NCBI GenBank assembly: GCA_973895155.1
Contig: OZ316894.1
Coordinates: 2,930,457-2,994,456, forward strand
Length of the DNA: 64,000 nt
Source of the DNA: Marsupella aquatica
Lineage: Eukaryota; Plantae; Marchantiophyta
Reading direction: 5' to 3'
Of the stretch, positions 2,952-58,351 are shown one piece after another. Under the pieces are notes generated by a model that worked only from the letters and a program-made list of their open reading frames with translations, was not told where the DNA came from and searched no databases. A program made the position numbers and the translations under genes. Numbering within the stretch: the stretch's first letter is position 1; every line of letters starts with the position of its first letter.

Positions 2952-5900
2952 TTATAATATTTGTAAATAACTACAATGCCTTGAAAAACTATTGGAGTCT
3001 AATACTTTGGTAAAAGCATCCGCTGGATTAAGCTTTCCATCAATCTTGACAAGCTCAAATTCATCATCCGATAATGCCTGTCGGATGAAATGATAGCGGA
3101 CATCAATGTGCTTTACTCTGCCATCCATCACCTGATTCTTGGCAGTGTAAATTGCACTTTGACTGTCACAATGAAGATATACACACTCCTGTGATAAACC
3201 CATTTCCGTGACAAGCTTTTTCAACCAAATGGTCTCTGATGTTGCTTCTGCTGCTGCTACATACTCGGCATCCATAGTAGACTTTGCAACACACTTTTGG
3301 AGAGTAGACTTCCAACTAATGCATCCACCAGCAAGTGTAAATACATATCCAGTTGTCGATCTCCTCTTATCCAGATCACCTGCGTAGTCTGCATCCACAT
3401 AACCTTGAAGCACTTTCATATTGTTTGAACTTGCATCAAACAATAAACCCTTCTTAGTGGAACCTCTGATGTAGCGCAAAATCCATTTCACTGCTTCCCA
3501 ATGAACTTTTCCTGGATTTGCCATGTATCTGCTTACCTTGCTAACGGCATAAGTTATGTGTGGTCGGGTGTATACCATGAGATACATTAAACTACCCACA
3601 ACACTTTCATAAGGAACTTTGGACATCAAACTTTTTTCTGTCGCATCCGATGGACAAAATGCTGCAGAAATATTGAAATGCCTTGCCAAAGGAACACTCA
3701 CAGCCTTAGCATCTGCCATGTTGAATTTTGAGAGTACCTTCTCTGCATATCTTTTCTGCATCAGCCAAAGTTTGACTTTGTTAACATCCCTGACAATTTC
3801 CATGCCTAGGATCCTCTTGGCTGTGCCCAAATCCTACATCTTAAACTCAGAACTGAGTTGGGCCTTAAGCTTATCAACTTCGCCCCTATCCTGTGCTGCA
3901 ATGAGCATGTCATCCACATAAAGTACAAGCTTAAAACCTGTGTTGTTCACACGCCTTATGTAAACACATGGATCGTACACGCTTCGCACAAATCCAAGCG
4001 ATTTCAAAAATTCATCAAAACGCTTGTTCCACTGCCTTGGGCTCTGCTTTAATCCATACAAGGATTTTAGCAACTTGCATACCAAATTTTCCTTGCCCTT
4101 TTGCACAAAACCCTCTGGTTGCCTCATGTAAATCACCTCATCCAACGATCCATATAAGAATGTCGTGACAACATCCATTTGATCTAAAACCAGATCAAAT
4201 AAAACTACAAGAGCACATAGCAAACGTATTGTTGAATACTTTGCTACAAGTGAAAAAACCTCATTGTAGTCTATACCTTTTTGTTGAGTAAAACCCTTGG
4301 CTACCAACCGAGCCTTAAATATCTTCTCAGCATCCTCCATGGGTCCATCTTTCTTCCTATACACCCACTTGTTGTCAACAACCTGCTTGTCACTAGGTAG
4401 ACTTGTGAGTTCCCAAGTCTTGTTATCATGAAGTGATTTCATTTCCATGCGCATCGCCGCCTGCCACTGTTGCTTCTCCATAGAAGCTAGGACCTCTCGA
4501 AATGAGGATGGATCTCCATCTTCTGTCACCAATGCATCAATAGATTCTTCATCCAAATCCACTTGATCAGAAGGAAGCCAAGTACCATACCTTTTCCGGG
4601 CTTGACGTTTGCGAGTTCCTCTTCGCATTGAAGACTCTGGCTGATCTGATTGTAGTGCGCTTTGCCTTATAGTAGTGTCAACATATTCTTTATTTGACAC
4701 ATCCTCTCCCCTTAAATCCTCTCGAGGAGGAGATTGCTCGTTGTTAGTAGTAGGGAATTGACCTATCTCCCCCTCCTTCAATGATTTGTCTTCATTGAAG
4801 GATACATCCCGACTAACAAGTAACTTGCAATCAACTGGATCCCACAATCGATATCCTTTAATGTCACGCTGATAACCAAGAAAAATGCATTTATGGGCTC
4901 TAGGATCTAGCTTAGTCCTATTGTTGCTAGGAACATGTGCATATGCTTCACAGCCAAAAACCTTAAGCTTTAAATAATCAGCAGGTCGATTGTGCCATAG
5001 CTCAAAGGGGGTTTTGTAAGTAATTGCTCGACTAGGAGAGAGATTTACTAGATAAGCAGCTATGTTGACAGCTTCTGCCCAAAAGATTTATGGCAATTTA
5101 GAGTGGCTCAACATGCTCCTTGCTCGCTCCAACAATGTGCGGTTGAGTCGCTCAGCAACACCATTTTGCTCAGAAGTGTACACAGTTGTGAGATGGTGAG
5201 TAATTCCCTTATTTGCACAATACGTGTTGAACTCGCCAGAGGTGTATTCACCACCATTATCTAATCGTAGATATCTCACATTCTTTGCAGTCTGTGTCTC
5301 AACTTGAGCTACCCATTGTTTGAAGATGGAAAGCACTTCAAACTTATGGGCAATGAAATAAATCCAAACAAACCTTGAGTAATCATCGATAAACGATACA
5401 TAGTATTGTTTGCCTGAATGTGAGGAAACCGGAGCAGGACCCCACACATCGGAATGAATATACTCAAGTACAACTTTAGAATGATGAATGGCAGTCGGAA
5501 ATTGAGTTCTTGTTTTCTTGCCGATAATGCAATGATCACAAAAACTCAACTTGCATGCTTGCAATCCTAGTAGGAGATATCACTTGTGTAGGATTTCTAA
5601 ACTTTTTTCACTCATGTGACCAAGCCGAGCATGCCATAAATTGATTTTCTTCTCCTGAGATGTGACCAAATTGACTTCGGCAAGAAGTGTGGTGCCTTCC
5701 AAGACATAGATGTTTCTTTTCCTCTTGCCAATAAGAGCTTCAGTTGATCCATGCGTGACTGTTAACACCCCCTCAGTTGCATTCCATTGATAACCCTTCG
5801 CATCCAAGTAGCCAAGAGAAATCAAATTCTTACACATTTCTGGAATGTGTCTGACATTTGATAGAGTACAGTACTTGCCACCGGGTAGTTGAATCTTTAC

Positions 5901-6977
5901 GAATCCAATCCCTAAAACTTTGCAAGAATGATTATTTCCCATCAAAACAGATCCGTTAATAGGAGTGTAGGATGAGAAAAGTTCACGCATATAGCACATG
6001 TGATACGAGCAAGCGGAATCCAAGATCCATTGACAATCCTCAACTTGGGAAGTGGTACACAATGCAAATCCTTCACTATCCTCTTCTCAAACAACTACTT
6101 GGGCTGAAGAACCGACAACTTCCTTGAATGTGTCTTTGACGCAACAATCCTTCTTCATGTGGCCCACTTTGTCACACTTCCAACACTTTATCTCACGAGT
6201 AGACTTGGATGGTGATTTGGATCGAGATCTAGATCTGGATCTAAACCTCCTCCTACCAAAAGATTGGTCGTGCAACCTTCCTCGCTCCATGGGAAGTGGG
6301 TTAAACCTTTTGTTTTCATGAGATGGCTCCCTTGATTTGCCTCTTTCTACCAACAATGCTGTTGATGATGAGGTTGAGGTAGGATGAGCTGAAGAAACCA
6401 GCTTAGACTGCATATCATCTGTCAACAGGGCACTCACCACATCATTGTAAGATATAGTTGTCTTATCACGGAATAGAAGAACTCGAGACAAAGATTGGTA
6501 CGAAGGTGGTAGTGAGCTCAAGAGTTGTAAGGCTTTCTTTTCTTCGCTCAAATGCTCCCCCAAATTCTCTAGGTCAACCACAAGATCATTGAACTGATCG
6601 ATATGATCTTGAATCTTGACTCCATCAGCCATTTTGAATTGCATGAGCTTCAGACTTGCATACATTTGGTTTGACATCTCCTTCTTGTAGTACTTGTTGC
6701 GCAATGCTTGAAACAAGTCCGTCACCGTTTGTGTTGCTTTTTCCTCGAACTGCTTCTTCACATTGTTTTTCAGGTACATGCCAACAATACTTACCGCTTG
6801 ATCCTGGAGATCATGCCAGTCATCATCTTCCATCTCCTTGGGTTGAGATCTTAGTACCTTGCCTAGGCCCATCGCCCTAAGTGCATCCCTCACGTTACGT
6901 TCCCACATTGTATAGTCCATCCGACCATCAAATTTTTCCACCTCAAACCTTTGACCTCCAATCCTAGTAGTCGCCAT
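2952..6977 (-). pseudogene. Copia gag-pol polyprotein, one frame with 4 in-frame stops
   Basis: Motifs FEVEKFDG, RSRSRSKS, zinc knuckle CWKCDKVGHMKKDC, protease WILDSACSYH, LWHARLGH, integrase HSDVWGP/FIDDYSR/NGVAERLNRTL, RT KARLVAKGFTQ/LYVDDM, RNase H YVDADYAGD/KHIDVRYHF. All five ORF pieces share one frame; stops at 6087, 5580, 5088, 3834. Confidence 0.95.
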
Positions 6978-7920
6978 CGCTGGAATGCCAAATGTAGTGT
7001 GGAGTCGCCTTCCCACAAGAAATAAACGTCGAATGCTCAGATGTGGGGTGTGAAAATAAGGCCAAAAATAAAAGTTGGTGAATTTTGAAACTGATCACTT
7101 CTATGTGTAGCCCACAAGATAACGCTCCGAATTCTGAAAACGGTTTATCAAATGGACTCTCGAGTGCCAAGAATTTTTACTCCGACCGGAGGGGGGTAAA
7201 AGATGAAATAATTACCCCTCGAGGGAATCTCTTATGCCAAAGATTCCACTAGTGTACTTTTTCAGAATTGAACGCACCAATACTTGCCTAGCTTCCCCAA
7301 GTACGCCTCTCCAAAAGTTGAAGTTGATCCGATTTTATTTGCCGCTCGGAATCTTTGACCTTCGGTAAAAATTTAAGCCTCTGGAAAAGAATCTTTTCGG
7401 GAAATTCCGTCCGCCCTTGTATAGCCCCTGTGGGGGACTTCATAGGGGGCACTTCCCCCTGCCCAAGCCCTGTCGAGCCCTGTCGAGCCCTAAAAGGCCT
7501 CCTCGAAGTTTTCGACCTCCTCGCGCGTCCGCGGAAGTCGCGACTACTCGCGGCAGAAAGTACCCCTCGGCGGATTCACTCAAATTCCCGTCTCAGTTTT
7601 GATGAAATCCAATTCTGATTTCAGATTCAGAAACTAGACTTCGAGGGCATCAAGATTGATATAAAGAACTTGCAAAATGGTGGAGTAATGAGGGAGAAAA
7701 AATTCGGTGAAAGTGAAATTGTTTCCGTTTCTGACCTCAGGCCTTCATTGCTTCACGGAAATGAGCCCCTGGTTGTGTGCTCCACACTTGTGAGAAGATT
7801 GAGTCCGATCTTCTTTCAATAGCTCCGCTTTGAAGAGGAAATCATCCGCTGTTCGCTTTGCTTGAAGCAAGTTCTGTGGAGTTCCTAATCGACTGAAAAA
7901 ATCTGAGCTCTGATACCAAT

Positions 7921-10696: not shown

Positions 10697-14053
<3,357 letters not shown>

Positions 14054-14879
14054 GCAGACATGTCTCAGTGTATTTTTTGGCTAACAGTGTCTCGCCGTAT
14101 CATGTTAAGCATTTTTCTACGTATTCTGTTCAGACGAGGTTGGCAATTCCCGACTTCATCTAGCGACTGTCTAGGGTTGGAGAGGATCACAGAAAACATT
14201 GCTGATCTGTGAAGTTTGTTGAGTAAACTTCAGCGTCAGCTGAAGATCACAATGCTTGGCTCCCCTTTAGAATAAAGTCCCTTGAATGATTTTGCGACAA
14301 GTCGTGGACTTCTAAGTTTGTATAGTTACCTCATACATAATCTCAATATTCAACTGAAGCTGGGATGTAGGCTTGGATGCTTTCTTCAATCTAAATTTAC
14401 AACTGCATTTCCGTGGCCCAGACTCACCTCATTTCTTCTGAGAGAAAAGCCCTCACTGCGTTACTGTTGGCTCAAAAACCCTCGGAAAGAATTTTCCTGC
14501 AAGGTTGATTGAACGAGATTTGAGTCTATTCATACTTCAGTGATATGCACATTTCAACAGGAAAGCCAAATGCCCGTGACACACCGAACTAGCACGTCAG
14601 CCTATAAGGAAGCAGAGTAACGATTCTTGGCTGCAGACTACCCAGTTTAGCTAGAAGGCCCCTCACATCTACTGGTGAGCCATTATTTGAGAAACCGACC
14701 TGCAAAATCTGAGATTTTAGTATCCTCTCCAGTCATCTGTACATATTGCTCATGAGATTGGAGCCAAACAATTCGTCAGTCACAGAAACTAGTTGTGCGG
14801 CAAACCTACCGCTGATCAAAGAAGCATGTTAGTGATGAAGGCTGCGAGACTAATCTTACCACATGCCAGAAACAACAGA

Positions 14880-15204
14880 TGAAGTAAACCATGGAGATTC
14901 TGCGGTCCTGTAGGATAGGCAACTTGGAATTGCTAGAAAACCATCTTTATGTGGATCCAAACCTGGTTGGTACGTAGGATTTGCTAGCAAAATCTTGGTT
15001 TCTGTCCCAACCTTCTACAGTCTTTCATGCGTCTGTTCTAGTGTGAGTAGACGCATGATACTGGACACAAGTTGGGGAAACTTTGGACGAGAATTGGGTT
15101 GGATTGTATTTATTTGGATGCTTGAGAAAACTATTTGGGTAGAGGACAATGGCTTCAGTGCCTCAAATCATGATTGGTTGTTCAAGGGTTTTTATAAATC
15201 ATAA
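14880..15204 (+). mobile_element. Decayed L1-type LINE ORF2 C-terminal (zinc-knuckle) remnant
   Basis: Translated fragments RSCRIGNLELLENHLY and WIVFIWMLEKTIWVEDN resemble the CxxC..E..HL and IW.ERN motifs of plant L1 ORF2. Confidence 0.4.
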
Positions 15205-15425
15205 TTTGGACAACTTTTGAGGAAAGCAAACAGGAATTTAGTGGCTCGAGTGTGTCTGGGCCCACTATGTCTATGCAAAACAGCATGGGCTTGAGCTAGA
15301 AGTTCTTTGTATAGTCTAGAATTTTCAAACCAACCACCTGGTTCATGGGAGTGAAGATCCCTTCACAAAACCTTGGGGGCACTTCTGATTTCTTATTAAT
15401 TTAAGCAAATTGAAGCGCCACTTCC

Positions 15426-15657
15426 TGGTCTAAAGATAGACTCCAGACCAAGATCAAGGTTCAAAGGAAATGTTTGAACCAAGTGGTCTAAAGATAGACT
15501 CCAGACCAAGATCAAGGTTCAAAGGAAACGTTTGGACGAAGTGGTCTAAAGGTAGACTCCTGACCAAGATCAAGGTTCAAAGGAAATGTTTGGACCACGT
15601 GGTCTAAAGATAGACTCCAGACCAAGATCAAGGTCCAAAGGAAATGTTAGGACCACA
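15426..15657. repeat. Minisatellite, 4 x 58 bp
   Basis: Unit tggtctaaagatagactccagaccaagatcaaggttcaaaggaaatgtttg... starts at 15426, 15484, 15542, 15600. Confidence 0.95.
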
Positions 15658-16341
15658 TCTAGAGGTGGCCTAACATGTAGACAAAGCACTCCATATCAGC
15701 ATTTTCTTGGGCCCATTGCTTGCCACATAGGATCCATAGACACTATACCTGGCCCCCAGAGTTCTTGTAAAGCCAACTGCAACAGGAGTTTTCCATAGAA
15801 GAGAAGGGCAGTTTTCCATAAAAGAGAAGGGTGAGATGGCCCTGAGATGGAAGACTGATAACTTCTTAGAGCCAAAAATGGCATTACTAGAAAACGAGAG
15901 GTTCAACATGTTAAGGCTATGAATGAGATTGTGAGATGGATGGCCGTGCACTATTTCATGGTGACTCAGCTATTTGCACTTCAGAGAGACAAGTAACAGT
16001 CTCACAATCTGTTTCAAGTATAGGTTGCCACTGGTCAACTTGTTCTCACATTCTGGACACAGGGTGATACACGAGATCGCGAGTAAAAAATCAGATGCTA
16101 CCCCTAAGTCTTGTAAAGCCAGGTAGTATGGAATATTGGAAAGCAGATCAGGGACAAGGAGTGATGAGGGTTACTCAACTAAGTTTACCCCTCAGTCCTT
16201 TGCTTGTTGTATTTCTATGGATGCATGGTTATGAGCCATCCCCTCCCTGCCAGCCTGGGCCACGGATTATGACTTTTGGCCCCCCCCGGCTAGCCAACCT
16301 AAAAGGTAGTCCAATTTCAGGCACAACTTTACATGAACAAT

Positions 16342-16579
16342 GAGATATGCTTGATGGGCCCCCAGGTGAACCTTTCTTACCTGATGGGCCCCTAGGTAAC
16401 TTTTTTTACCAAGTAAGACCTCTCTTAATGACCAGTAGGCACCACACAAGGACAGGTGTAGGCACCACACAAGAACAGGTGTACTGGTCATTAAGAGGGG
16501 TCCTACTTGGTAAAAAAAGTTACCTAGGGGCCCATCAGGTAAGAAAGGTTCACCAGGGGGCCCATCAAACATATATCTC
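16342..16579. mobile_element. Mutator-type foldback MITE (238 bp)
   Basis: ~96-bp near-perfect TIRs (16342-16437 / 16482-16579) beginning GAGATA. Spacer is two copies of a 23-bp unit. 10-bp TSD catgaacaat / caagaacaat (1 mismatch). Confidence 0.88.
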
Positions 16580-16821
16580 CAAGAACAATAGAGAAAAACT
16601 ACAGTTGGGGTTTTCCAAGGCCATGGCTCTAATCCATCAGGCTCTCTGTCCTCAATGGTTACATCCCATAACCCCCTTGAGACAATGGGTTAAGCCTGGC
16701 GATTATTGCACATAAAGTAGAAGCCTATGGTGCATGTAGCAAGTGCCCATAGGGTGAATGAATTTTACACACCACTAGAAACACTATTGTTAGTTTATAT
16801 CATGGAGTGTTGTTCCTTATA

Positions 16822-18250
16822 CATATCCAGGCTCTCACTTTTTAATGTGCAATTACCACGACCCATGGGTTACACTATGAGTTATCTCAACCACTAACCG
16901 TTGACACACTTCACCTTCATCTGTTACATGTGATGGTTGTTCCTCATACACGAGCCTGAATATATACAGATTCTTTGAATGTTAACAGGAATGACAACTC
17001 AACGTTCGTTCCATCTGCAAATTTTGGTGGGGCCCTAGAGTCACATTCTAGAGGCTTCACTCTACAAGCCTAGGCCCCAACTTTCTCACACACGAGCCTG
17101 AATATATCGCATTCTTTGAATGTTAACAGGAATGACAACTCATCCTTTGTTCCATCTGCAAATTTTGGTGGGGCCCTAGAGTCAAGGTCTAGAGTCTTCA
17201 CTCTACAAGCCTGGCCCCAACTCTAGCTTCTGTTCGCGGTTTATAGGTAAGATATTCAGGCTCTCGCTTTTTGATATGCAATTACCACAACCCATGGGTT
17301 ATCCTATGAGTTATCTCAACCACTAACCATTGATGCAAGTCACCTTCATCTTGTTCCATGTGATGTTTGTTCCTCACACACGAGCCTGAATATAGCATGT
17401 TCATCTTGGAACATGTCTTTTTTTGTCTTGTAGTGATATAATTTTATGATAAAAGAAGTAGGTAACTAGGTACATATAAAGTATATGCCAAGAAATTAAT
17501 CTCTCTTAATTAAGAGTGAGTGCTATAACACACAAAAACATAAATACACATGCAAAAAAAACATATTATGACCAAGAAAGTACAAAGTTACTAAAGAGTT
17601 GTGCACATACAGTACAGATTTTCACTTCCTTCTAAGTAATGACAGCCAACTCACTTAAAACCATAAATTTTGTTAAGGAGATCACTAGGGGAACTTAGTA
17701 CACTAGATGTGTACATTGTTCAAACTCATTTATCTCACTTTCATTAGAGAAAAGAGAATTCACTAAGGAGTGAATGAAAGATTAAACATTTAAGAGGGGA
17801 GCCAAATACTTTCAAAATACTATAAGTTCACTAAAATTAAAAGGGGTACAAAAGTTAATTCAAAATCAAATTAATACAAATGATTCACTTTCTTAAGGCA
17901 CATTAAAATCAAAATACTTAACACAAAATCTGAATAAGACAAAATGTGAAAGTTGGATTCACCATTATAGCAGCTTGAATCTAATATATGCCCATTCTTT
18001 GAATGTTAATAGGAATGATGACTCAACGTTAGTTCCAGCTGCAAATTTTGGTGGGGCCCTAGAGTCATGGTCTAGAGTCTTCACTCTACAAGCCACAAAG
18101 CCTGGCCCGAACTCAATCTAGCTTCTGTTAGTGAATTACAAGTAAGATATCCAAGCTCTCGCTTTTTGATATGCAATTACCATGACCCATGGGTTACCCT
18201 ATGAGTTATCTCAACCACTCACCATCAACACAATTCACCCTCAGCTGTTT
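16822..18250. repeat. Complex tandem repeat (modules A-B-B-A-[AT-rich insert 17398-17965]-B-A)
   Basis: Module A (acccatgggttac.ctatgagttatctcaaccact) at ~16860, 17290, 18186. Module B (ttctttgaatgttaa.aggaatga...aattttggtggggccctagagtca) at ~16970, 17111, 17995. Confidence 0.85.
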
Positions 18251-19062
18251 CCTGTACTTTTTGATTTCTCTGAATGACTTCTCAGTGAAGCTGAAAAGGA
18301 ACAATCTACTCTGAAGATCATGGGGAAGGATGAGCGATGCAAGCCGTGATGAAGGTTCCTAAGCTTGTAGCATCTGAACATGTTCATTATTTATTGCTTT
18401 GAATGACAGTTCTGAATGACTTCAAGCTGAAGCTGGTCAAAGGGAACGGGTGCGAATGCTCCTCAAATTCATCGTCTCAACGTGTTCATCGCTCTGAAGG
18501 ACTTGCAGCTGAAGGGAACTTACGAAAGAGTGAAGACGGTGTCCTCGACATAAAGAGTGCAAAAGGAATGCAATCTGCTCTTCGAATGGAGAGTATGAGA
18601 TCTTCTCTGATACAGCACCCTCGAAAGATGTTTCAATCTGGACACTTGGGAAGCTGACTCAAAGCAATCTGCCCCGGAGGCAACTGATTCATGAGGACGC
18701 TTGAGACTACAGAGAACCGTCACGTTCAGGTCGCTCTCGTATCGGTGGGGGATCACGAGTCTATACGGAATATCATAAGGGGGGGAAATCGTGCAAGAAC
18801 TTCAAAGAAGGTGGCCGTCTACAGTTGATGGAGGTAGGAATTGCCATTTGACGACACGCCGTCGCCGCTTCTAGTAAGCTATTACGCCACGAGGCTTCCG
18901 CAGATGCTAGTAACTTGCGGATCAAACGTTTGCTGCGCGCCTGGCGCACCTCCACAGGAAATCAGCAAGCCGGGTTCACACAGATTGAGACTGCTAGGAT
19001 TTAGATCGGCCACCGCCTGCGCTCTTAACTAGTCTTTTCAGAGATATATTCCCTCTTCTGTC

Positions 19063-19890
19063 ATGGATCCGCAAGGCAGCTCGCCAGGCACACATCAAAA
19101 CGAGGACTTAGCAGATCCATTTCAAATCAATCGCTACCAATACTTGGCACATCGAAACGGCAAAACTTTCGGGACTGCCAATCCATCTATCATGGAAAAA
19201 CCATTCTGGAAATACATGATTGCGAGAGGCGGTGACGGGTATTCTGTTCGACGACTGTTCCACAACGACAAGGATTTGTTGAATGACTTGGAGCCAGTAT
19301 GGTGCTTCTCTCGCTTTGGTCGCACAGTCACGAAGCTGCCTGACGGACGACATGTCCTCATAGGCGGTGAACACCAGGACTATTATGATCCAGACTTCTG
19401 CATTTACAACGACGTGGTAGTCATCTCCGAACCGCAACGCGTCAATTCATTAACATTTTCCACACCTGAAGACGACATTTGGGACGACTACACTGATCTT
19501 TCTACGGCGTTTCCAAAACCTACCTCGCCAGAGAGCATCACTATTTACGGATATCCTGTCGATGTCTTCCCACCTACAGACTTTCACACATCGACGTATT
19601 ATCGTGATCCTGTACGCGGCAAGGAGTTTATCTTCATCATTGGAGGGTACGGTTACGCCGGGAGTGCTGCGCGTGACCGAACAGACGTTTACCAGCTCGA
19701 TTTGAGCGATTTCACAATACAGCTCCAGGAGACGAGCGGTGCGAAGCCGGCTGGAGGGATTTATGAACACAACGCGGAGCTAATTGACGACGAAGATGGT
19801 GTCGAGGCTGCGATCGAGATCACGACTAGTGCTGGCCAAGCTTTCTCGCTGCTCATCAATAGATTGGAATGGGTTTCGCTTGGCTCATGA
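19063..19890 (+). CDS. Intronless 275-aa Kelch/beta-propeller-like protein of a microbial family (domain often found C-terminal to ankyrin repeats); HGT candidate
   Basis: Clean ATG-to-TGA ORF. Motifs FGTANP..MEKPFW, PVWCFSRFGRT.T.LPDGR.VLIGGEH.DYYDPDFCIYNDV, IYGYP.DVFPPTDFHTST and IFIIGG.GY match a family I recall from bacterial and ascomycete proteins. The hydrophobic-GG pairs are Kelch-like. Family assignment is from recall, not a search. Confidence 0.85.
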   Translation: MDPQGSSPGTHQNEDLADPFQINRYQYLAHRNGKTFGTANPSIMEKPFWKYMIARGGDGYSVRRLFHNDKDLLNDLEPVWCFSRFGRTVTKLPDGRHVLIGGEHQDYYDPDFCIYNDVVVISEPQRVNSLTFSTPEDDIWDDYTDLSTAFPKPTSPESITIYGYPVDVFPPTDFHTSTYYRDPVRGKEFIFIIGGYGYAGSAARDRTDVYQLDLSDFTIQLQETSGAKPAGGIYEHNAELIDDEDGVEAAIEITTSAGQAFSLLINRLEWVSLGS

Positions 19891-20002
19891 ATCTCCAAGT
19901 TGGACATCATTTACGACCCTCAACTGAAAGTGGAAGTCTCCCGATTACTTGGGCACGATTTCTCAATCGCTCTCGACACACGCTTTCGTGGGGTGGACAT
20001 TC

Positions 20003-20140
20003 TGCTAGTGCAAATGTATAATTTTACTCTGCTTGTTTTGGACTTGGGCTGGATATTGTGCTAGGTGCAAATGTAAAATTTCATTCTGCTTGTTTGGGAC
20101 TTGGGCTGGATATTGTGCTAGGTGCAAATGTAAAATTTTA
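20003..20140. repeat. Tandem repeat, ~2.4 x 57 bp
   Basis: gacttgggctggatattgtgctaggtgcaaatgtaaaattt at 20041 and 20098. Confidence 0.9.
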
Positions 20141-20850
20141 TCGCCCTTCATCAAAAACCTGATTTTGTTTTGCACCATCAGATCCCCATACACTCATCCT
20201 ATCGCAAATGTCAACCTGAGCTGCCCTATGTCTGGGCAAGTGTGGCACCATGGGCCAGAATGGAGGAAACTCACTAATGGTGTATGACACAAAGCTCGGT
20301 GAACTCTCGTTGAACAGCAATTGCTATGTAAAAGGCAATCCTGTCAATCTCACAAATCTTAGCGATGTAAATACCTGTCCGGTTAAACATAGAAAACCAT
20401 CATCTATCGATTCCAGAGCTCTACCTGGCATAATATCAAGGGCTTTCATCGTGAAAACCTCTGCCAGTCAACTGTGCATGCTGTTGTTGAAATTCACCCA
20501 AGAATGCTCCGAGAAGAGTTTGACTGTCCATCGATATTCCCCAACTGTGACGGCATAATGACAAAGGCATATGCAATGCAGACTTCCTACTCGGGTAGGA
20601 TCTAAACTTTCATAGTTTCATCACACTCTCTCCTTCATCGGCAGGGGACAATCTGGGCGAGCGCTCTAATTCCTGTGTTCAACAGGCATTTCTCTCCGCA
20701 GCTTCAATTCAACAACTTCTAAGCACACTTTTCAAATCCACCTTGCTACACTTGTTCTGATCAATTGCTTGAACGTTCTAGTTGTCAATTCATTTCGACC
20801 GACGAGGGCCGTCTTTTCACCCGACCCTTGCCGTAACTAAAATAAAACAG

Positions 20851-21600
20851 GGTTGTTATATTTTTGGCGAGGAAGCAAGGTACGGAATAATTACAGTTCA
20901 CCTACCTTGAGTGATCTGACGATTCGTCTGTGTGATCCGTGTGAGGTCAGAGGCTTCTTCTAAAACACATTCCCATAACTCAATGGATTTCCTACAGTAG
21001 ATAAATCTCTGAAGACATTTTCTTGTGCTGTTGTGTCTATCGCTAAATACCACCGCTTTCCACTGTTCTTAGAACATTTCAAAATCATCCAGACTGGATC
21101 CGAAGAAATTAATACCTGAAAGTAACTGTTGTAGCTGAGTGATGAATTGGTACCACTCTCAGGCAGTCAGGCGGGTTTATGAACAGATTCTTGGTCTTTG
21201 CCAACTTTTCTAATGCAGCGTGGTTGAGATTCTCGTCGACAAGTACTTTATTTAATTATGTCGCCAATGTTGTATGTGTGAAGTGATGAAATTCTTCTAG
21301 GGTCACAGCACACCTGCAGCAATGTTTACACGCCTCAGCTGATTCTGTGATGGATCCCAACTATTAACTTCGAAGAAGCAACTCACTCCCGTCTCTTCTG
21401 TCGAAGTCACTTACTCGGAACGAGCTCTCTAGGATGAGCTGCTGAACGAATTAGTACCTCCCGGCGGTTCACAATCTGTCTGAGATAATCTGGCGTCATC
21501 CTGTACAAGGCAATTTAACGCGGAAGCGGAGGTGGTAAGGAAATTGAGATCAGTAGCTATTTTGTGTCGGAAGAATTCCTGGCGCATGGGTGTTGAGTTT
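20851..21600 (+). pseudogene. Heavily decayed receptor-like kinase domain
   Basis: One frame with many stops retains the subdomain order: IFGEEARYGII.VHLP (Gly loop), FVCVIRV (VAVK), DFLQ*INL*RHFLVLL, MNWYH...GLCQL, EILVDKYF (NILLD), QLLTSKK, EVVRKLRSVAILC. Confidence 0.42.
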
Positions 21601-23423
21601 TCAATGCTCTGCACATGGACCGACCTGCAATGACTCAATTGAAGAAGAGCTGAACGAGAGCGTTCTGTGGAATCATGACAGAGCCTGTCGGGAAACAACT
21701 TTAAATGCCACTGTTATCTCAACCATTCGGGCATTTCGAATGTTGACGATGAATACAGTGGCGGAGGGTTCGTATTAGACCGTCAAACATGCCAAAGGCA
21801 AGGAGACTCCCATTCTGAGAGTTTAGAATGCAGCTGTTGGTCCACGTATTCTGACTTGGTGTGCATAGAAAACAGTGGACGAGTGGTAATGTCTGAATGA
21901 TGTTTTCAGTACTAACAAACCGTAGAAGACTCCAATACAAGAGAAAAAAACTTATGTGTTATGCATCCAACATTGTCACAAGTGATCTTTGAATTTAGTC
22001 AGTCTCAAAAAGATCGATTCAAGCTCTGTCTTCAATACTGCCGGCGACAGGATTCTAGAAAGAATATCAACATGATTTGAAAGGAAGCTCTCGCATGGAC
22101 TTCTCCGTTTGCACGGCGAATTCCACCATTGGCAACCGGCGGTCAGAGACGCACTTTTTAGATGCAGAGCTCCCAGCCATTGTCGCAATTATCAAATTAG
22201 TGGGAGTTGTACTCATTGTGTGTGCAATCAGTGGGAGTCTGGCAATTTTTTGTTATTGTACACTGAGAGCTAACATTCCGACCGGCCTAAGGTGCGGAGC
22301 CCACTCACTCACCGGCCTAAGGTGCAGAAAAGGGCTACCGTCCTCGTTATACGATTTCGGCGTTGGCCCCAACTGTCAGCAGGAAGGAACAAAGTCAAGC
22401 CTAAATAAATCTTACTTATTACACCCTTTCCAGCAGAAGAGTCAACGGCACGTACAAATCCGTCGCTAGGATTTGATGCGCATGGTGAGCCAAGAGCCAA
22501 CGTACAGACGAAATGTCCTTTCACAAGGATGAAGCCACCAGCCGAAATATCTGTTCCTTTTGACGCATGAAGTAGCCGAAATCGTATCAAGTGGACGGTG
22601 GTTCACTCGAAGATCACTCGGCACAATGTACACGGCCGAAGGTAACTAGAAGCTCACGGATGAAGCCAACAGCTTTGAATGAGCCAGAGTAACGATGCCC
22701 TCTCACCCGGATGATGAGAGACTCTAGTCAATAGGAATTCGAAGTTGCCACAATTGGCTCAACTAGTACTCATCTTGATCAAAGGTGCGCATGAAAACCT
22801 AAGTGTCGAGGAAATTCATTGACCTTTACAAGTGCATATGACAAACAATCCAGAAGGATACATCCGCCCAGCTACGACAACCTGGATTGTAGTTGTTGGA
22901 ATTTCCAGTTGTCTTGGCTCGAGGTTCGCATAAAATATAACGGACATGCGGAAGACTGCCTTTCGTCTTTCATTATTTAGATGCATAGGACTCAACAAAC
23001 TGCAATTTATCAAGGTACTCAGGTGTGTTGTTAATTCATGTGTTGCTCATACGCCACTATATATGAGTATTAAAATCAGTGAGCTGGTAAAATTTCAGCA
23101 CGATTGCGGCAGATCAAATTTAGACGTTTAGTCAATCCTATCACATTTGCCGACAGTTGTTACAATTACGCAAATATCTGAACTAAACATTTCAAGGATT
23201 CACAATTTCCTTCATCTCAGACACTGTAAGCTCGTGACATACAGCTCATGATCAATGACTCTGTTTCCACAGATCACAGGACAAACTTGGGTAATGCTTG
23301 TCATTTCTCACGGTTGTCAAAACTGATTATGCAACCTTTGGGCACCCCAAATGGCTGTTTTGTATATTCCAATGTATATTCGGAGAGACCTGAAGAGTTA
23401 CAGCCAAATTTCTAGTAATCTTT

Positions 23424-23794
23424 AGCCAAGACCACTGATGTTTATCGCAACACCTTCATTTGCCCTTCTTTTATTCAATGGACAAGGGTAGATCCAGCTA
23501 TTACTATCAAAGCTACTGGACATCAATGCTTTTGGACCTTTGAGTATTCAGACTACAACAACTCTGATGAACAGTCACTAACTTTTGACAATTATCTGAT
23601 ACCAGAGGAGCCAAGACCACTGATGTTTATGGCAATACCTTCATGTGCCCTTCTTTTATTCAATGGACAAGGGTGGATCCAGCTATTAGTATCAAAGCTA
23701 TTGGACATCAACGCTTTTGGACCTATAAGTATTCAGACTATAACAACTCTGATGAACAGTCACTAACTTTTGACAATTATCTGATACCAGAGGA
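23424..23794. repeat. Tandem duplication, 2 x 185 bp
   Basis: agccaagaccactgatgtttat...ttatctgataccagagg starts at 23424 and 23609. Confidence 0.95.
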
Positions 23795-24576
23795 TATCAC
23801 CTACTGTAGTTTCTAGCAAAGCTGGAATCTAGCTGCTATTGATGGATCGTGACGCCCATAGGGGATGATCGATGAATTATGTGCAGAACTAATGTAATCT
23901 GATGATCACATTGCCAAAAAACAAAATACGTCCGCAAGACAGGATCCCAAAGGCAAGAGAGAGTCCGTTTTGCTTTTGTCATGGTGACGGCCATGCTCAG
24001 ATGTCCTCACCCACTACCCAAAAAAATGGTTGTTTACGTTTAAACTTCGAAGAAATTTAAAACTAGCAACCCACAATCGCACGAGTGATGCTCATAGAAG
24101 ACAGAGCCCTCTGGGGAATCTATGCTTTGTGCCGATGTCTTCCGCGCGTGTTGAGGACTATCCCCCACTTCGTGATGCACGCTGAACAACGTAGGGATTC
24201 TCACTGCAACCATCCTCGGAACTGCCCCCGGGGCACTTATCTCCATGCCTGCGAGCATGTGCAAAAGTGGATGTCTAGCCAAAAACTGGGATGGAGTATG
24301 ATATTCGGATAGACTCCTACCCCTGCACAACGATTAAATGGCCCCTATTGTGAAACCGGTTACAATCATTCTTTGTATTGATTCAATGTTGTGATTCTCG
24401 GAAAATATTTTTGAGCTAAAAAGGCCGACTAATTGAACATTTTCGTTTATCTACATTTCAGACGGACTACTAAATTTTTCTAGCAAGCCAACTACCCACC
24501 TGAAAGCAAAGCGCGCAAATCACGGTCAAACATTGTTGCTCTCAGAAACGAGAACACATTCCTTTGCTCCCGATTC

Positions 24577-27500
24577 TCATACTTCCACGTCCCTTCCAGA
24601 TGAGCAGCGGCTTAACGAATTGGTGAGCGTGCGGCTTCGTCTTCTCCAATTAAGTCTAATTCTCCGTGCGTTGAAATAAGGCTTCTCTCGCACCCGAATA
24701 AATTTCAACAGTAATGCAAGGGGCCAGCTAACGAACCCAATGGCAATACATATGAGCCACTGCTGCCAGGTCAAGGCATGCGTGGTAGCAAACTTTTTCA
24801 AAAATTGCACGATCAGAAACTGGAAAACAGCCTCGCAAACGATAATGCCCATGAACAGGTAGTTCCTCGTCAATCCATCGAAGATGTTTTTCTTCTCTGG
24901 ACGTCTGGCGTTCACCTCGTTGAAAATCTGGCAAAAGACGAAAGCATTGAAAAGGATCGTGTTTTTGATGAGCGTAGCATCTGTTTTGTTCTCGAGCTTG
25001 AAGATCTTCTTGCCTCCATAGTTGATTGTCATCAGTACGACAATCTGATAGAGTGCTTGACCAAATAGATTCCTCCACATGACGTTCGTAATCAAAGGTT
25101 CCTTCCGTCCAACAGGAGTCCTCTCCATCAAATCATCTGTCGGTTCCTCTGTTGCCAAGGCAAGTGCTCCCAGTGTGTCCATGATGAGATTCACCCATAA
25201 AAGCTGAACTGCAGTTAATGGAACGTTGCCCGATGATACCGCAGACACGAAATTTATCACAAGCGCCGTCACGTTTACTGTAAGTTGGAACTGGATGAAC
25301 TTCTGAATGTTCGCATAGACAGACCGCCCCCACCGTACCACCTTCACGATTGAAGCAAAGTTGTCATCTAAAATCACAATGTCCGAACTTTCTTTGGCAA
25401 CCTCGGTTCCTGCTATTCCCATGGACAGGCCAACATCAGCATCATGGAGCGCCGGAGCGTCATTTGTACCGTCTCCTGTGACAGCTACCACCTCACCCCT
25501 TGCCTTCAATGCCTTGACAAGTAAGAGTTTGTCTGACGGTGAAGACCTTGCCATCACATCGAGATTCGGTAAAATTCGATCGAGCTGCCCCTGGTCGTAA
25601 AGGCGGAAATCTTTACCCTCAACAACAATCCCGCCAGGGGTGAGAATGCCGCATTCTTCAGCGATAGCCTTGGCGGTGATGATACTGTCTCCCGTAACCA
25701 TCCGGACCTTCACTCCGGCTGCTTGGCACCTCCCAACCGCTTCCCTCACACCTGGCCTGCAAGGATCCTTAATGCCGATCACAGCTACAAAGACAAGTCC
25801 TTGATCTGGGATTGTCCATGTTTTCAGGCCCATCTCGTCATCCAGTGGGATATGCTGAGGCTTCAAATCTTTGTATGCAAAAGCAATGCAACGCAGGCTT
25901 GCGGCAGCCATTCCTTCAATCTGGTTTCTGAACTCCCTAGCATTGTCTGTCGTCATGGCTTGTAACGAACCATCTGCATCCACCCATTTCTCACTGATCT
26001 CCAGAATCATCTCTGCTGCCCCTTTCCAGTGCGCTTTATATGATCCGTCGCAATGCTTTACAACCACCCCAGCTCTTTTCTTCTCTGAGTTGAAAGTCTC
26101 AACATGAATCACGGATGTAGTCCGTTTGATCTCATTGAAATTCATGCCAATCGCAACTCCCCAGGCTAGCGCTGCAGATTCCGTTGGGCTACCTGATATC
26201 TCTGCCTCACCATCTTGAGGAGTAAACACGCAACCACTGCTGTTCTGAGCAATGCCAACAAGAAGAGTTTCATAAAGTTCATGTGGTACGATAGTCTTAA
26301 CCTCCTGAGCTTCCAACTGCTGGCCAGCAACCCAGAACCTCGCCACACTCATCTTATTCAGAGTGAGTGTACCAGTTTTGTCACTGCATATCGTAGTTGC
26401 AGATCCCATCGTTTCACATGCTGCTAAATTCCTTACCAAAGCCTTGTCATTCATCATTTTCCTCATCGAGTAGGCCAATGTCAGAGTGACAGCCAAAGGT
26501 AGGCCTTCAGGAACAGCCACTACGATAATCGTCACGGCAATGGCGAAAATCTTGACGATCTCTTGAATGGCATTCGAAGCCCTTTTGTTCACCTTGAAAT
26601 CCACTGCAAAGAAGTGTATGAAAAGGACAAAAAAGACCACAACTGCAATCAACAATCCGATCTGTCCGATGAACGTTGCCGCTCCATCTAATCGTACCTG
26701 CAGAGGTGTCTGTTCTCCATTGTCTTCTGTAAGAGTTGCCATCACCTGACCCCACTCGGTGTGAGTACCAACAGCCGTCACCAGCATTTTCCCGTATCCG
26801 TCCATAACTTTACAACCGGACAACAGGAAGGGATGCTTGGCATCTTTCATTACAGGCAGGCTTTCACCAGTCATGCTCGACTCATCTAAGGTCAGAGATT
26901 GACCGCATAACAGGAGGCCATCGGCTGGCACCTGATCACCAATGTTGATGGAGACGATATCGCCAACGACAACATCAAAGACTGATGTCTTACGCCTGCG
27001 GCCTCCTCGAAAAACTTCAATCTGTATATTTTTTTTCACATCACTCAAATCTCTAAATTGAAGCGATTGTCGATAATCGCTAGTAGCTGTTACTGCAATG
27101 ACTATGAGGACCGCTGCTATAATGCTTGCACCGTCGTACCAGCCGTCCTTGGGGCCTTGAGACCACATTTCTGTCCCGAGTGAAACCACAGCGCAGAGCA
27201 TCAATATTATGAGAGTCGTATCCTGGCAAGCTTGCCACACAAACGCCCAAAAGGATTTTTCAGGCTTAGGGGGGATTTTATTGCTCCCGAAAGCCTCCTT
27301 TCTTTTCTCGACTTCGTCCCCAGTATCATCAATTCCACCATCACCATTGGATTTCAGAAGCTGAACGATATTTTGAACTCCACCGCGATTTTGGAGTGCA
27401 CCCAGATTCTGATCTTGCATCAGCTGCACGAGGTGAGATGGTCCAATTCCAAAACCTTGAGGGACAGTCGGATCTTTGCTAAATCTTTGCTCGGCAAAAC

Positions 27501-44020: not shown

Positions 44021-45082
44021 TCATCCCGCGACAAGGACAGTCGGATCCTCGAGGAACGGCAACTCTAGATGCTCCATTTCTGGGAAAGCTACACTCCTCA
44101 TCATATCGAGGTGATCATAGTCCATTGAGGGTATGTCCCGCCTGACGTGATCTCTCTCATCGTGATGGTAGTGGGAGTCAGAAGAAGTCACATGATCATC
44201 GAAGTTGCCATTAAGAAAACGTTCAGTGTCAAAGACTCCATGCTGATGCTGGTCCGGCAATCTCTTTCGACAGAATTGCCCGTCTAGTCTTGAGAAAGGA
44301 TCTTGGGGACATGCAGGAGCCTTCCATGCTGGGCTGGAGTTCGCAGAGTCCGACTCCTGCGAGTCCTGAGATGCAGAAACCGAAAACTCTCGAGTCATAT
44401 CGCTTGAAGCTACAGTAACCAGACGGTAGTCTTCTTCAAACAGCAGCTCAGGATACCTGGGTGTGAGCTTGTGCTCACTTCTGTCAGTAACACACGACGA
44501 CGTCTCTGAAGATGACAAAGTACTGTTGGCCGCTTGATCCGCCAGTGGGGTCCGGGGGATGACGCTGCTGGATAGGGTATTGCTGTTCCCTGGGAAACGG
44601 CTATCTGGTAAAGAGCTCATCTGCCTTCCATCGCTTCTACCAGATTGCACAACATCATTCCTAATGGATCGATACAAATCTATCTCAGGCACGGCACTGA
44701 GCTCCGGCGTTGTCCTGTAAGGACCCAAGTGCATCTGCGCCTTCACAGCCAAATTCGTGATCCACTCGAGAGCGGGCCTACCTTGAAAGGAACTCGTTCC
44801 AGCGATATCATCAATGTGCGCACTGAATTGTTGACTTGGATACATGAAATTCGTGCGAGCCTTAAGGCCTCTCATAGATAGTGCTGCATTGTCATACGCT
44901 TCCGCAGCTGCCTCAGCCGTGTCGAACGTCCCCAGCCATTTCCTCTCCTTTGTGTTCGGATCGCGAATCTCAGCAGCGAACCGACCCCATGGCCTGCGCC
45001 GCACTCCTCTGTAACGTCCCTCCCGAACCTTTTTTCCCCTCTTCTCCGCTACCTTCTTTGTACTAGTACTTGGCGTCGACAT
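44021..45082 (-). CDS. ERF: AP2/ERF transcription factor, group VIII-b (ESR1/DRN/LEP/PUCHI-like), intronless, 353 aa
   Basis: Single AP2 domain [66 protein letters not shown] and MRG.KARTNF.YP are VIII-b signatures. First ATG at 45082; acidic C-terminus. Confidence 0.95.
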
Positions 45083-46446
45083 TCGATCACCTTGGAAACT
45101 CGATTCAAAGCAAGCCTCAGAGGTCCGGCTCTCGTTACGGCAGTCTTCACAGAAGAGAATCCTTAGAGAAGAGAAGACAAGAAGCACAGAAGAGAATCCT
45201 TAGAAGAAGAGAAGACAAGACGAGAAGACGAGAAGCTAATGTGCAGCTTCGAGGTGCGCAAGACTCTCGTTCAAGAGCTTTCACGCTAGCGAACCGTCTT
45301 CTCTCCTGGAGCGAGAAGACAGGTTCGATCACACCACTGAAATTTTCGAACAGCAGACCTGCAATAAGAACCATCTGATTGGCCTAGCTTTGGTGGCTAT
45401 GAGTCATAATAATTAAGTACTAACTATTCCGACGCCAATGAACTCTCTAGACCCCCCCTTGCAATAGATTCTACTGCTAGCTAGTCGCTCACCTTATACT
45501 CCGCTATAGCACGCTATCGCAGTCATATCCAAGATAGCTTAGCATCTTCAATGACCGTATGTTGATCACTAATGGCTCAAGAATGGGGTTAGCATCTCAA
45601 GGACCGTATGTCACTAACGGCTCAAGAATAGGGGCAGCAGATTGTTAGGAGACAACTTGCCCAGAACCGTATTTTCACACAGTATGAGCCAGTGTGCGTG
45701 CCTCCCATCTGGTAGTCGACGAAATTAGTTTCTCCCCAATTTGGCAATCGCCCATGTGACTGTGTGGCTGGCTTCATCGTATGTCTATTGTTTAAGTTCT
45801 AGATGTTATTCGAGTCCATTGGCCCGGGTTGAGAGCTGTGTGTGGACGTGTGGACCCTTGAACTGAACTGAGAAATGAAAATTTATGCGCCTACGTACAA
45901 CTGTAGAACCGGGTTGCTTGACAGATTTGGCGGGCCACGGTCGGACAGATCACAGATGCAATGCCTGCTACTATCATGCTGAACCTTTTCGACGATTCCT
46001 GGACGGGGCTTCAAACTGGATTTTCCAACCCGCTTACTGAACATAACTGAGGACAAGGCATAGCGATAATGAGGGCGGTGTCTTGAGGACTGGGAATTAT
46101 CTGGGGATGATTGTGATGAACGTGCCATGATAAATGAACCCTTGTTTCGTCTGGAAAGCTATTTTTATCTGAACACTAGCCATACACCTTCATTTTTCAA
46201 ATGTCATTCCGGCTGGAAGCCACCCTGGCCCTACATTTTTCACTGACCATGACATTGGCCTAAAGTTGTCTGTGTTCAATCCATCACTCGCCCCAAAGCT
46301 CACACACTGTTCAAACTACACTAACTCCCCATAGAGTCCTTCTGCCTAGCCATCTCATTTATTTATGTTTAATAACATAACACTATCACTCAACATCACT
46401 TACTATGGATGCTGTCTAATTAACACACAAGATCAATAAAATAAAA

Positions 46447-51838: not shown

Positions 51839-52259
51839 TGTTGAGCATAGACGACGATCGCAACGGCAAGCCCATGAACCATCCAACGCACAATAGTCGA
51901 CACAAGAGATACGTGGTTCACCTCCTTGAGGCTACGTCCACGGGAACACACAAGAGAGCTTTACTGAACTCTAAGCCTGTTGGCTATACCGAGTCTCCAC
52001 AGTGTAAGCTCTCCCTATCTCTCAAGTGGCTCCATAACAATGAGCCTTGGTTCTACCTCTCCAAGCACACATGCCTCTTATGATATAGTGTGTAACTTAG
52101 TTGTACCTAACCACATAGTTGTACCTAATCACGTAGTTGTACCTAATCACGTAGTTGTACCTAACCACGTAATTGTACCTAACCACGTAGTTGTACCAAC
52201 CCACGTTGTTGTACCAACCACGTCATACCTAACCTAGACGTAAGAGTAAATACCCAATA
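51839..52259 (-). repeat. 3' LTR of copia element 2
   Basis: Matches 57931-58351; contains an 18-bp tandem array. Confidence 0.97.
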
Positions 52260-55400: not shown

Positions 55401-56773
55401 AATCCCGACCTCACTTGAAGTTCACCATCAATAACGCTCCATTGATGACCATTTGAATCCAACACACCGAGTGAAATCAGATTCTTACGCATGCCAGGTA
55501 CATACCTGACTCCGGACACTGTGTGCATAGTGCCATCAAACATTTGAATCTTCACAGACCCAATTCCCTCAATTTGACAGGAGTGATCATTTCCCATCAG
55601 AACTGAACCGTTTGAAACAGAGTAAGAACTGAAAAACTCACGAATGTAACAAATATGAAAAGAGCAAGCACAATCAAGAATCCACACATCATCTGCTCTC
55701 CTAGATGACGTGCATAGGGCATACCCCCGGCTTCATAAAACATACTCATCATTGAGTAAATCAGCTTCTCCATCAGCCCTAGCCACATTTGCCGATGAAG
55801 TTTCTGCTGCCTTTCCCTTACAATCTCGCTTGAAGTGTCCAACTTGGTTGCACTTCCAACATGTCACCTGCCTACTCTGAGGGGATTTACCCTTGGACTT
55901 AGATCTGGATTTAGATCTAAACTGGGTTCTACGGTCCCCAGTTGGTCGCTGCATACTCCTCCCACGGTTAACATTGAGGGCAACACCAGATGATGAAGGC
56001 TGTGACGTGATGTGCATCTTCTGCTGAAGATCATCACTAAGCAGAGAACTTACCACGTCATTGTATGAAATGGTATCCCTATCACGATGCAACAACACTC
56101 GTGATAGGGACTAGTAAGATGGAGGCAATGAACTAAGAAGCTGCAGAGCCTTCGTCTCATCATTCAAAGTCTCCCCAAGGTTTTCCAAGTCAACGACCAT
56201 GTTGTTGAAAGCATCCACATGGTCTTGCAACTTCGTACCAGATTCCTTCATCCTGAAACTCATCAGTTTGTAGGAAGTGTAGAGCCGGTTCGACAACTTT
56301 TTGCGGTGATACTTGCTCTGCAATTCCGCAAACAAGGACATGCAATCCTTATGTGCACCCAACTGCTTGATGATGGGAGGCATGAGATAGAGTGTAACAC
56401 ACCACACTCCCTGCTCCTGCATGCGGTCCCATTGTTTCTCATCAACATCGTTTTCACGAGGGCTCAGCAGTTGGCCCATCCCTGATGCATAGAGCACTCC
56501 CTTCACCTGCTTCTCCCATAGCAAGTAGTCAGAGCGCCCATCATACTTTGTCACTTCATACTTGGGTCCCCCAAGCTTGAAAGTCCCCATCTTCTTCTTT
56601 GGCACTACCGTGAGCTCCGGTAGTAGTACTGCTTCCTCCACCACACGCCGCACCGGTGATGGTATCGGTGTCACGTGCTCTTCCTCCTGCTCCTCTCTCT
56701 GCCCCTGAAACCTCCGCGGTGATCCTCGTGTTTCAAGTTCCACATCTTCAAAAAACTCCTCCGAATCACTCAT
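52450..56773 (-). pseudogene. Copia gag-pol, disrupted by stops and two frameshifts
   Basis: Motifs YEVTKYDG, RSKSRSKSK, CWKCNQVGHFKRDC, WILDCACSFH, HSDVWGP, SDNGGEY, KARLVAKGFTQ, LYVDDM, YVDSDY, KHIDVRYHF. Frame changes at ~55400 and ~53724. Confidence 0.95.
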
Positions 56774-57930: not shown

Positions 57931-58351
57931 TGTTGAGCATAGACGACGATCGCAACGGCAAGCCCATGAACCATCCAACGCACAATAGTCGACACAAGAG
58001 ATACGTGGTTCACCTCCTTGAGGCTACGTCCACGGGAACACACAAGAGAGCTTTACTGAACTCTAAGCCCGTTGGCTATACCGAGTCTCCACAGTGTAAG
58101 CTCTCCCTATCTCTCAAGTGACTCCATAACAATGAGCCTTGGTTCTACCTCTCCAAGCACACATGCCTCTTATGATATAGTGTGCAACTTAGTTGTACCT
58201 AACCACATAGTTGTACCTAATCACGTAGTTGTACCTAACTACATAGTTGTACCTAATCATGTAGTTGTACCTAACCACGTAGTTGTACCAACCCACGTTG
58301 TTGTACCAACCACGTCATACCTAACCTAGACGTAAGAGTAAATACCCAACA
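57931..58351 (-). repeat. 5' LTR of copia element 2
   Basis: Adjacent to the PBS; TG...CA ends intact. Confidence 0.97.

Follow-up and report, generated by a model that had tools for sequence, protein, structure and literature searches.

Fungus-to-bryophyte gene transfer is a common process: the main text of one study counts 1,809 transferred families, which are short, intron-poor and often near LTRs (PMC12513842), and a review includes liverwort transfer cases (PMC12448838). Examples named in these sources are the FB lectin FBT, RDS1, YANB, EUPF and microbial terpene synthases (PMC12513842, PMC12448838). The gene described here lies in the window, i.e., the whole 64-kb stretch of DNA from the liverwort Marsupella aquatica that was analysed. 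Set against the cases in those main texts, it is similar in being short, intron-poor, apparently of fungal origin, placed among plant genes near repeats, and lineage-restricted, and it differs in that its family lacks a characterised member and that it was seen here in two leafy liverworts only. Neither “kelch” nor “Calypogeia” occurs in the main text of PMC12513842, whose HGT tables (Supplementary Data 8–11) may list the family; one supplementary file of that paper held no match to it, and “kelch” is absent from the main text of PMC12448838. A literature search through listings and the opening lines of abstracts, in a collection poor in subscription papers, showed no paper about the family, nor one that describes a helix-capped half-Kelch domain in nature. 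Because transfer of this kind is described as common in bryophytes (PMC12513842), the surprise is limited; the process is known, while the family and its predicted fold variant are new. The reading preferred here is that of an intact liverwort nuclear gene, acquired from a fungus and retained, and good confidence can be placed in this account of origin and retention, a grading that does not extend to the biochemical role.

Three groups of described Kelch proteins offer points of comparison for the 275-amino-acid product. It shares four-stranded blades and the GG, YND and W motifs with the KLHDC/LZTR1/FBXO42 propellers (PF24681), to which its model aligns with Z scores of 10–15 over three blades. 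In contrast to the six blades of those proteins, it is predicted to have three, together with an N-terminal helical part, and the motifs EHEDxYDPDF and YPxxxFPPTDFH belong to its family and not to theirs. Galactose oxidase and other AA5 proteins consist of a seven-blade propeller and a C-terminal domain, with copper ligands and a Cys-Tyr cofactor. Kelch-type blades are shared with these as well (Z 10.6 to 6ryv), whereas the 275-residue model has neither a seven-blade ring nor a C-terminal domain; two Athelia homologues are labelled galactose oxidase/AA5 in UniRef, which looks like automatic Kelch annotation. The specifier proteins ESP, NSP and TFP, in the account given in PMC6218027, are iron-binding Kelch enzymes with an EXXXDXXXH motif and provide a precedent for Glu, Asp and His residues on a Kelch protein binding Fe2+ (PMC6218027). 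Their blades match the model with Z scores of 11.4–11.7 but rmsd values of 9–10, and the new protein differs from them in having half the blades, 13–14% identity and no Brassicales pathway in its host. A Glu after GG is presumably common to both; the EXXXDXXXH iron-binding spacing is absent from the 275-residue protein, which reads GGEHQDYYDPDF.

The features of the locus are collected in Table 1. The original prediction had singled out a clean, single-exon frame of 275 codons between ribose-5-phosphate isomerase (RPI) and Ca2+-ATPase (ACA) genes, and this description held in full: the frame runs from its ATG to a TGA without an internal stop, and plant genes flank it on both sides, RPI on the left and ACA on the right. 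By chance, ~0.008 stop-free frames of this length would be expected in six frames over 64 kb at the local stop frequency. The DNA match to the fungal genes begins 2 bases before the ATG and ends at the stop codon, and because both ends coincide with those of the fungal relatives, the gene can be taken as complete, without a missing exon. It occurs once in the window. The left neighbour was named from its motifs, which we take to be those of RPI. The best matches of the ACA protein are from Calypogeia (75–87%), followed by Riccia and Marchantia (68–71%), and its nearest Calypogeia relatives are 84–87% identical as against 70% for Marchantia, values that make the host likely to be a leafy liverwort akin to C. 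fissa but of a different species. As a separate observation, this ACA gene of one long exon falls into a second set of ACA paralogues in leafy liverworts (84–87% identity to Calypogeia P0308 and P0576, 75% to P0275) and is possibly a retro-copy or a member of an intron-less lineage. A functional tie between the 275-residue protein and the adjoining Ca2+ pump was considered and set aside, adjacency being its sole basis.

Table 1. Coordinates of features in the window (residue numbers refer to the 275-residue protein).
Feature	Position	Strand	Basis or remark
Host ribose-5-phosphate isomerase (RPI), intron-split	11767..14053	+	7 coding pieces read, 5' exon not fixed
High-copy host repeat region upstream of gene	16256..18591	.	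depth 278–2768 vs ~20 in X1; internal repeats
Intronless fungal-type gene, 275 aa (P0001)	19063..19890	+	ORF, ATG to TGA; 71% DNA identity to L001/L002, 19061–19888 only
N-terminal helical part, residues 24–66	19132..19260	+	DSSP H24–30, H47–55, H59–66; conserved N40, P41, W49, M52
Kelch blade 1, residues 81–163 (predicted)	19303..19551	+	strands 88–91, 97–104, 113–121, 159–163; model
Signature loop G-E-H-(E>Q)-D-x-Y-D-P-D-F-x-I-Y-N-D, residues 102–117	19366..19413	+	columns 86–100% conserved
Codon 105 CAG (Gln), family Glu (GAG in L002)	19375..19377	+	one base change; motif counts
Variable acidic insert in blade 1, residues ~122–158, low pLDDT	19426..19536	+	model, homologue comparison
YPxxxFPPTDFH linker and Kelch blade 2, residues 164–222 (predicted)	19552..19728	+	model, conservation
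Kelch blade 3, residues 237–272 (predicted)	19771..19878	+	model, structure matches
57-bp tandem repeat, 100 bp past stop codon; short-read contigs break here	19989..20138	.	
Host Ca2+-ATPase (ACA), P-type, single exon, convergent with 275-aa gene	24577..27780	-	protein matches

Liverworts harbour endophytes, a point in favour of fungal contamination. Contigs of four sequencing runs from two studies were compared with positions 11000–28500 of the window, the depths cited being contig depths only; runs X1 and X3 may come from the assembly's own sample. In X1 a contig covering 18061–20069 spans the gene with 0 differences at a depth of 18.6, other listed single-copy contigs lying at 13–28, and its first position is inside the high-copy host repeat. 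In X2, from the other study, the contig at 19074–19929 has a depth of 47.7, equal to that of the contigs of the RPI region (47.7 and 47.2). In the proposed coverage check for a chimeric join, the gene contigs were thus at plant-gene depth in two studies. That the gene represents fungal contamination or a chimeric assembly join is extremely improbable given these depths, the anchoring of a gene contig in host repeat, flanks that bear no fungal similarity, and the presence of ACA as neighbour in the separately assembled Calypogeia genome as well. In its favour stand, besides the endophytes, the fact that the contigs listed stop at repeats on either side (the second tandem repeat that breaks them is at 23424–23794), none joining the gene to ACA or RPI, and base composition, in which GC and GC3 fail to separate host from donor (GC3 0.525 for the gene, 0.508 for ACA and 0.522 for the fungal gene). 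Upstream of the gene, at 18599–19073, the organism B runs (X4, X5) carry a divergent allele, for which X4 shows 20 differences over 410 bases; both upstream forms occur in X2, which may be a mixed sample, a hybrid or a polyploid.

An orthologue is present at the same locus in a related plant, Calypogeia fissa, as judged by consecutive accessions. The two halves of the ACA orthologue (CAM6095890.1 and CAM6095891.1) and a homologue of the 275-residue protein (CAM6095892.1, P0004) follow one another as gene models on a single contig of 20,206,424 bases (20.2 Mb), and the homologue adjoins the C-terminal ACA half, as it does in the window; this gene order was deduced from accession order and the shared contig rather than from coordinates. 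A second Calypogeia ACA copy (P0576) likewise shares a contig, of 34,336,743 bases, with a second homologue (P0020). The consecutive ACA and homologue models point to a single transfer that predates the divergence of these liverworts.

The origin of the gene was approached through its relatives. A protein search returned 1742 matches, of which the best 120 were examined. At the top of these are soil proteins (59–63% identity), three Calypogeia proteins, Entomortierella, lichen fungi and Athelia, and lower down come bdelloid rotifers, Bradysia, Sordariomycetes and bacteria. No named plant other than Calypogeia appears among these 120, in a collection that includes proteins of Marchantia, Riccia, Sphagnum, Ceratodon and Physcomitrium. 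The metagenome locus L002, from the top group, carries intron-split MFS, GH64, amidohydrolase, MYND and bZIP genes, and the best named matches of its amidohydrolase are from Pezizomycotina (Protoblastenia, 77%); because of this gene content and these matches, L002 is regarded as fungal. The window gene and the fungal gene are 71% identical in DNA over 865 nt, with pS 0.48–0.49, dS 0.76–0.80, dN 0.23 and dN/dS 0.29 against the fungal loci. Fourfold sites are identical to those of the fungal gene at 44 of 74 positions, compared with 25% at saturation (p=3e-10), and because synonymous sites are unsaturated, vertical descent from the common ancestor of plants and fungi is excluded. The flanks of the two genes show no similarity beyond that of shuffled sequences (80, 104 and 98 of 200 shuffles reach the score). 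Since the flanks are dissimilar and the fungal counterpart is itself intronless, a DNA route and an RNA route of transfer are indistinguishable.

A tree of 65 hand-picked rows and 241 columns (the query, 50 proteins and 14 of 80 bacterial loci), unrooted except that bacteria were taken as outgroup, placed the query within the fungi, the position that the proposed phylogeny check called for. The query falls in a clade of 13 rows (support 98/96) with three Calypogeia, six soil-ascomycete and one Entomortierella sequence and two rows without a taxon (P0009, P0010 and P0011 are proteins without a species name), and this clade is nested in further nodes containing lichen fungi and Athelia (97/91, 96/80 and 98/93). 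In a 31-row subset, an AU test rejected a grouping of the liverwort genes with bacteria (p-AU 0.0012). The original prediction had left the donor as either a fungus or a bacterium; tree nesting and unsaturated synonymous sites favour the former, and the AU test speaks against the latter. Horizontal transfer is therefore supported, with the donor side narrowing to fungi, and a fungal donor is held with high confidence. Direct transfer from a bacterium such as Nostoc, or vertical descent from ancient times with the gene lost from other plants, could appeal to the wide occurrence of the family in cyanobacteria and planctomycetes and to the limit of the search, since weaker plant matches may exist beyond the best 120 of 1742. 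Both are very improbable, however, in view of bacterial homologues that are just 36–47% identical, the AU result, synonymous sites whose state relative to an ascomycete is incompatible with the age of the plant-fungus split, and the presence of Calypogeia as sole named plant among those 120 matches.

Entry into liverworts from fungi is the simplest reading of the tree, and a later plant-to-fungus move may have occurred inside the 13-row clade. Liverwort monophyly is weak: the query and two Calypogeia rows group at 88/23 in the 65-row tree, and a liverwort group appears in the best 31-row tree at 78. Because of this poor support, the case for a single transfer rests on gene order, from which one transfer only is very probable. 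By this account, a gene of an ascomycete soil fungus would have entered the liverwort nucleus once, beside ACA, before the lineage of Marsupella aquatica and Calypogeia diverged. Other placements in the tree concern different hosts. Homologues from rotifers (Adineta, Didymodactylos) and the fungus gnat Bradysia, the latter on a 5.6-Mb contig, form one clade (P0034, P0035, P0043 and P0049; 100/99); a grouping of the liverwort genes with these copies was tried and rejected (p-AU 0.0023, 31-row subset), and the separate clade likely reflects another transfer, into animals. Entomortierella and Athelia copies (P0012, P0023, P0024 and P0032) sit among ascomycete sequences, a placement that suggests transfers between fungal phyla.

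The product was modelled with AlphaFold2 on a 135-row alignment (pLDDT 88.9, pTM 0.86). The predicted structure consists of three N-terminal helices and 12 strands, the latter arranged as three four-stranded Kelch blades. Among 48,161 chains, Kelch propellers provide the best structure matches, with alignments that span roughly half of the ring, and Foldseek agrees; these include FBXO42 (Z 14.6, rmsd 2.4, 146 residues) and the three-repeat Keap1 fragment 8pks (Z 11.1, rmsd 1.9, 120 residues). The gene had been named Kelch-like in advance, a label borne out by the blades and the propeller matches, although a full propeller was not recovered: the model of the full-length frame has three blades rather than five to seven in one chain. 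In several of the structural alignments the N-terminal helix takes the place at which additional blades would begin, which suggests that the helical part caps the open side of a half-propeller. Most fungal-type homologues share the insert before IYGYP in blade 1, which in bacterial homologues is short, in keeping with the earlier view that a long acidic insert marks the fungal form. By sequence the fold is faint, the Pfam Kelch family PF24681 matching at 16.4 bits, below its gathering cut-off of 50, and Pfam finds no BTB, F-box or BC-box domain in the protein. NCBIfam and PDB sequences contain no characterised relative, and these sources, viral folds and the ESM Atlas yielded generic Kelch or unnamed clusters only. 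The invariant R84, N116, D117, H175 and GG are presumably ordinary Kelch signature residues and, for that reason, uninformative on catalysis.

More specific to the family are the residues of the blade 1 loop after GG (E103, H104, E105, D106, Y108, D109, D111 and F112) and of the linker into blade 2 (Y164, F169, T172 and D173), which are its most conserved family-specific positions. From Kelch geometry, we take the signature loop and the blade 2 linker both to lie on the ligand side. In the tandem proteins P0155, P0156 and P0185, which contain two or three copies of the domain, GEHED or GEYED and PTDFH are kept in one copy only, while all copies keep the fold motifs; since the extra copies lose these motifs yet keep the fold, the loop likely has a functional and not a structural role. 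The GEHEDxYDPDF loop is thus a likely candidate for a metal or ligand site. P0155, P0156, P0185, P0203, P0227, P0108, P0153 and P0161 comprise tandem two- and three-copy forms, mostly with one intact motif, a doubled ankyrin-plus-domain protein and a methyltransferase fusion (P0161).

Genomic context in bacteria bears on how the domain is used. Across 80 bacterial loci, no neighbour family occurs in more than five, and the largest clusters of the 1549 ORFs from these loci (36, 32 and 7 loci) overlap the gene in other frames; no pathway clue came from these neighbourhoods. Ankyrin fusions were found in 26 of 32 bacterial proteins scanned, a sample chosen from the 80 loci with short proteins deliberately included, and the bacterial frame reaches at least 380 aa at 74 of the 80. 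Fungal forms are without ankyrins, and eukaryotic members have dropped them, as anticipated when the family was described as one of bacteria, often fused to ankyrin repeats, and of fungi. The lack of conserved neighbours, the dropped ankyrins and the fact that bdelloid rotifers and a fungus gnat separately have the gene support stand-alone use. The most likely role, put forward tentatively, is accordingly that of a protein that would act alone, as a predicted three-blade half-propeller with a helical cap whose acidic EHExxYDPD loop would bind a metal or small molecule, either as a binding protein or as an enzyme.

A protein-binding adaptor of the same origin ranks below this role and is somewhat unlikely. 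Here two half-propellers would pair into a six-blade Kelch ring holding a basic peptide or protein, in the manner of KLHDC2 or LZTR1, an arrangement consistent with best fold matches to substrate-binding Kelch domains, with the ankyrin fusions and the two- and three-copy tandem proteins, and with three-blade propeller fragments in the PDB list (8pks, 6htn). Against it, the confident model of the two-copy protein P0185 (pLDDT 91, pTM 0.88) fails to superpose on a whole six-blade ring, its rigid Kelch matches covering 125–199 residues and its full-length Foldseek matches having an rmsd of 11–14; this model leans against simple ring closure by two halves. Three-copy proteins would make nine blades, and partner-dependent proteins would be less likely to survive repeated cross-kingdom moves.

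Retention of the gene was assessed at the protein level, the near clade being left out when conservation was scored. The window copy has private changes at 5 of 77 conserved sites, compared with 16 of 77 variable ones (p=0.017), and Calypogeia P0004 at 2 of 74 conserved sites, compared with 22 of 83 variable ones (p=3e-5). In P0019, the third Calypogeia copy, the motif is gone and constraint is not significant (p=0.33); both P0019 and P0020 look degenerate. The suggested dN/dS check, calculated against fungal genes rather than liverwort orthologues, gave 0.29, compared with 0.38 between two fungal loci. The gene had been called domesticated, a term whose basis is conservation and shared gene order rather than expression.

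Of the 54 columns with at least 85% conservation in the 135-row alignment, the query keeps 53, the exception being E105Q. All motifs quoted at the outset were found, with one deviation, GGEHQD in the window in place of the GGEHED of the family. Among 252 motif matches in proteins P0001–P0274, EHQD occurs once, in the window copy, and EHED in 242; X1 and X2 contigs, from the two studies, agree with the window letters at codon 105. Further changes (A59G, A62V, L196Y and R211Q) affect columns that are 75–80% conserved, and with E105Q they make the window copy appear less constrained than Calypogeia P0004. The chance that E105Q weakened the window copy is put at about even. A genuine transfer followed by decay, in which the frame is still open and function is lost or relaxed, would account for a unique substitution in a 99% conserved column, for the four other changes and for the degenerate look of P0019 and P0020. 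Decay is nevertheless unlikely, because a branch of 0.24 changes per site has accumulated no stop or frameshift, private changes still avoid conserved sites, and dN/dS to the fungal genes does not exceed that of two fungal loci.

A retained gene of fungal origin at this locus would constitute an unusually clean and datable fungus-to-plant transfer, with close donor relatives, unsaturated synonymous sites and a shared insertion site in two liverworts. Its copies are in distinct states (intact motif, E-to-Q, motif lost), so that the fate of a foreign gene after arrival is open to direct study. An uncharacterised family of >1,700 proteins, with a predicted half-propeller fold, has made its way into several soil eukaryotes, and such a pattern is typical of useful functions carried by single genes. 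A bolder and rather doubtful proposal is that of an undescribed enzyme family, a helix-capped three-blade Kelch half-propeller with an EHEDxYDPDF metal site, encoded by a repeatedly traded gene of soil life. If this were true, the gene would have passed from bacteria to fungi and from one fungal phylum to another, and would have reached leafy liverworts on the one hand and bdelloid rotifers and fungus gnats on the other by separate moves; the enzyme would deal with some common compound or toxin of the soil.

The remainder of the window holds further elements. A 240-bp imperfect inverted repeat at 16342–16577, within the high-copy region, resembles a miniature transposon. Two stop-interrupted Ty1/copia-type retrotransposon bodies lie at 2952–7094 (-) and 52450–56782 (-), and an 18-bp tandem array at 52098–52223 and again at 58190–58315 likely belongs to the LTRs of the second. 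A single-exon AP2/ERF transcription factor gene (PF00847) is located at 44021–45199 (-).
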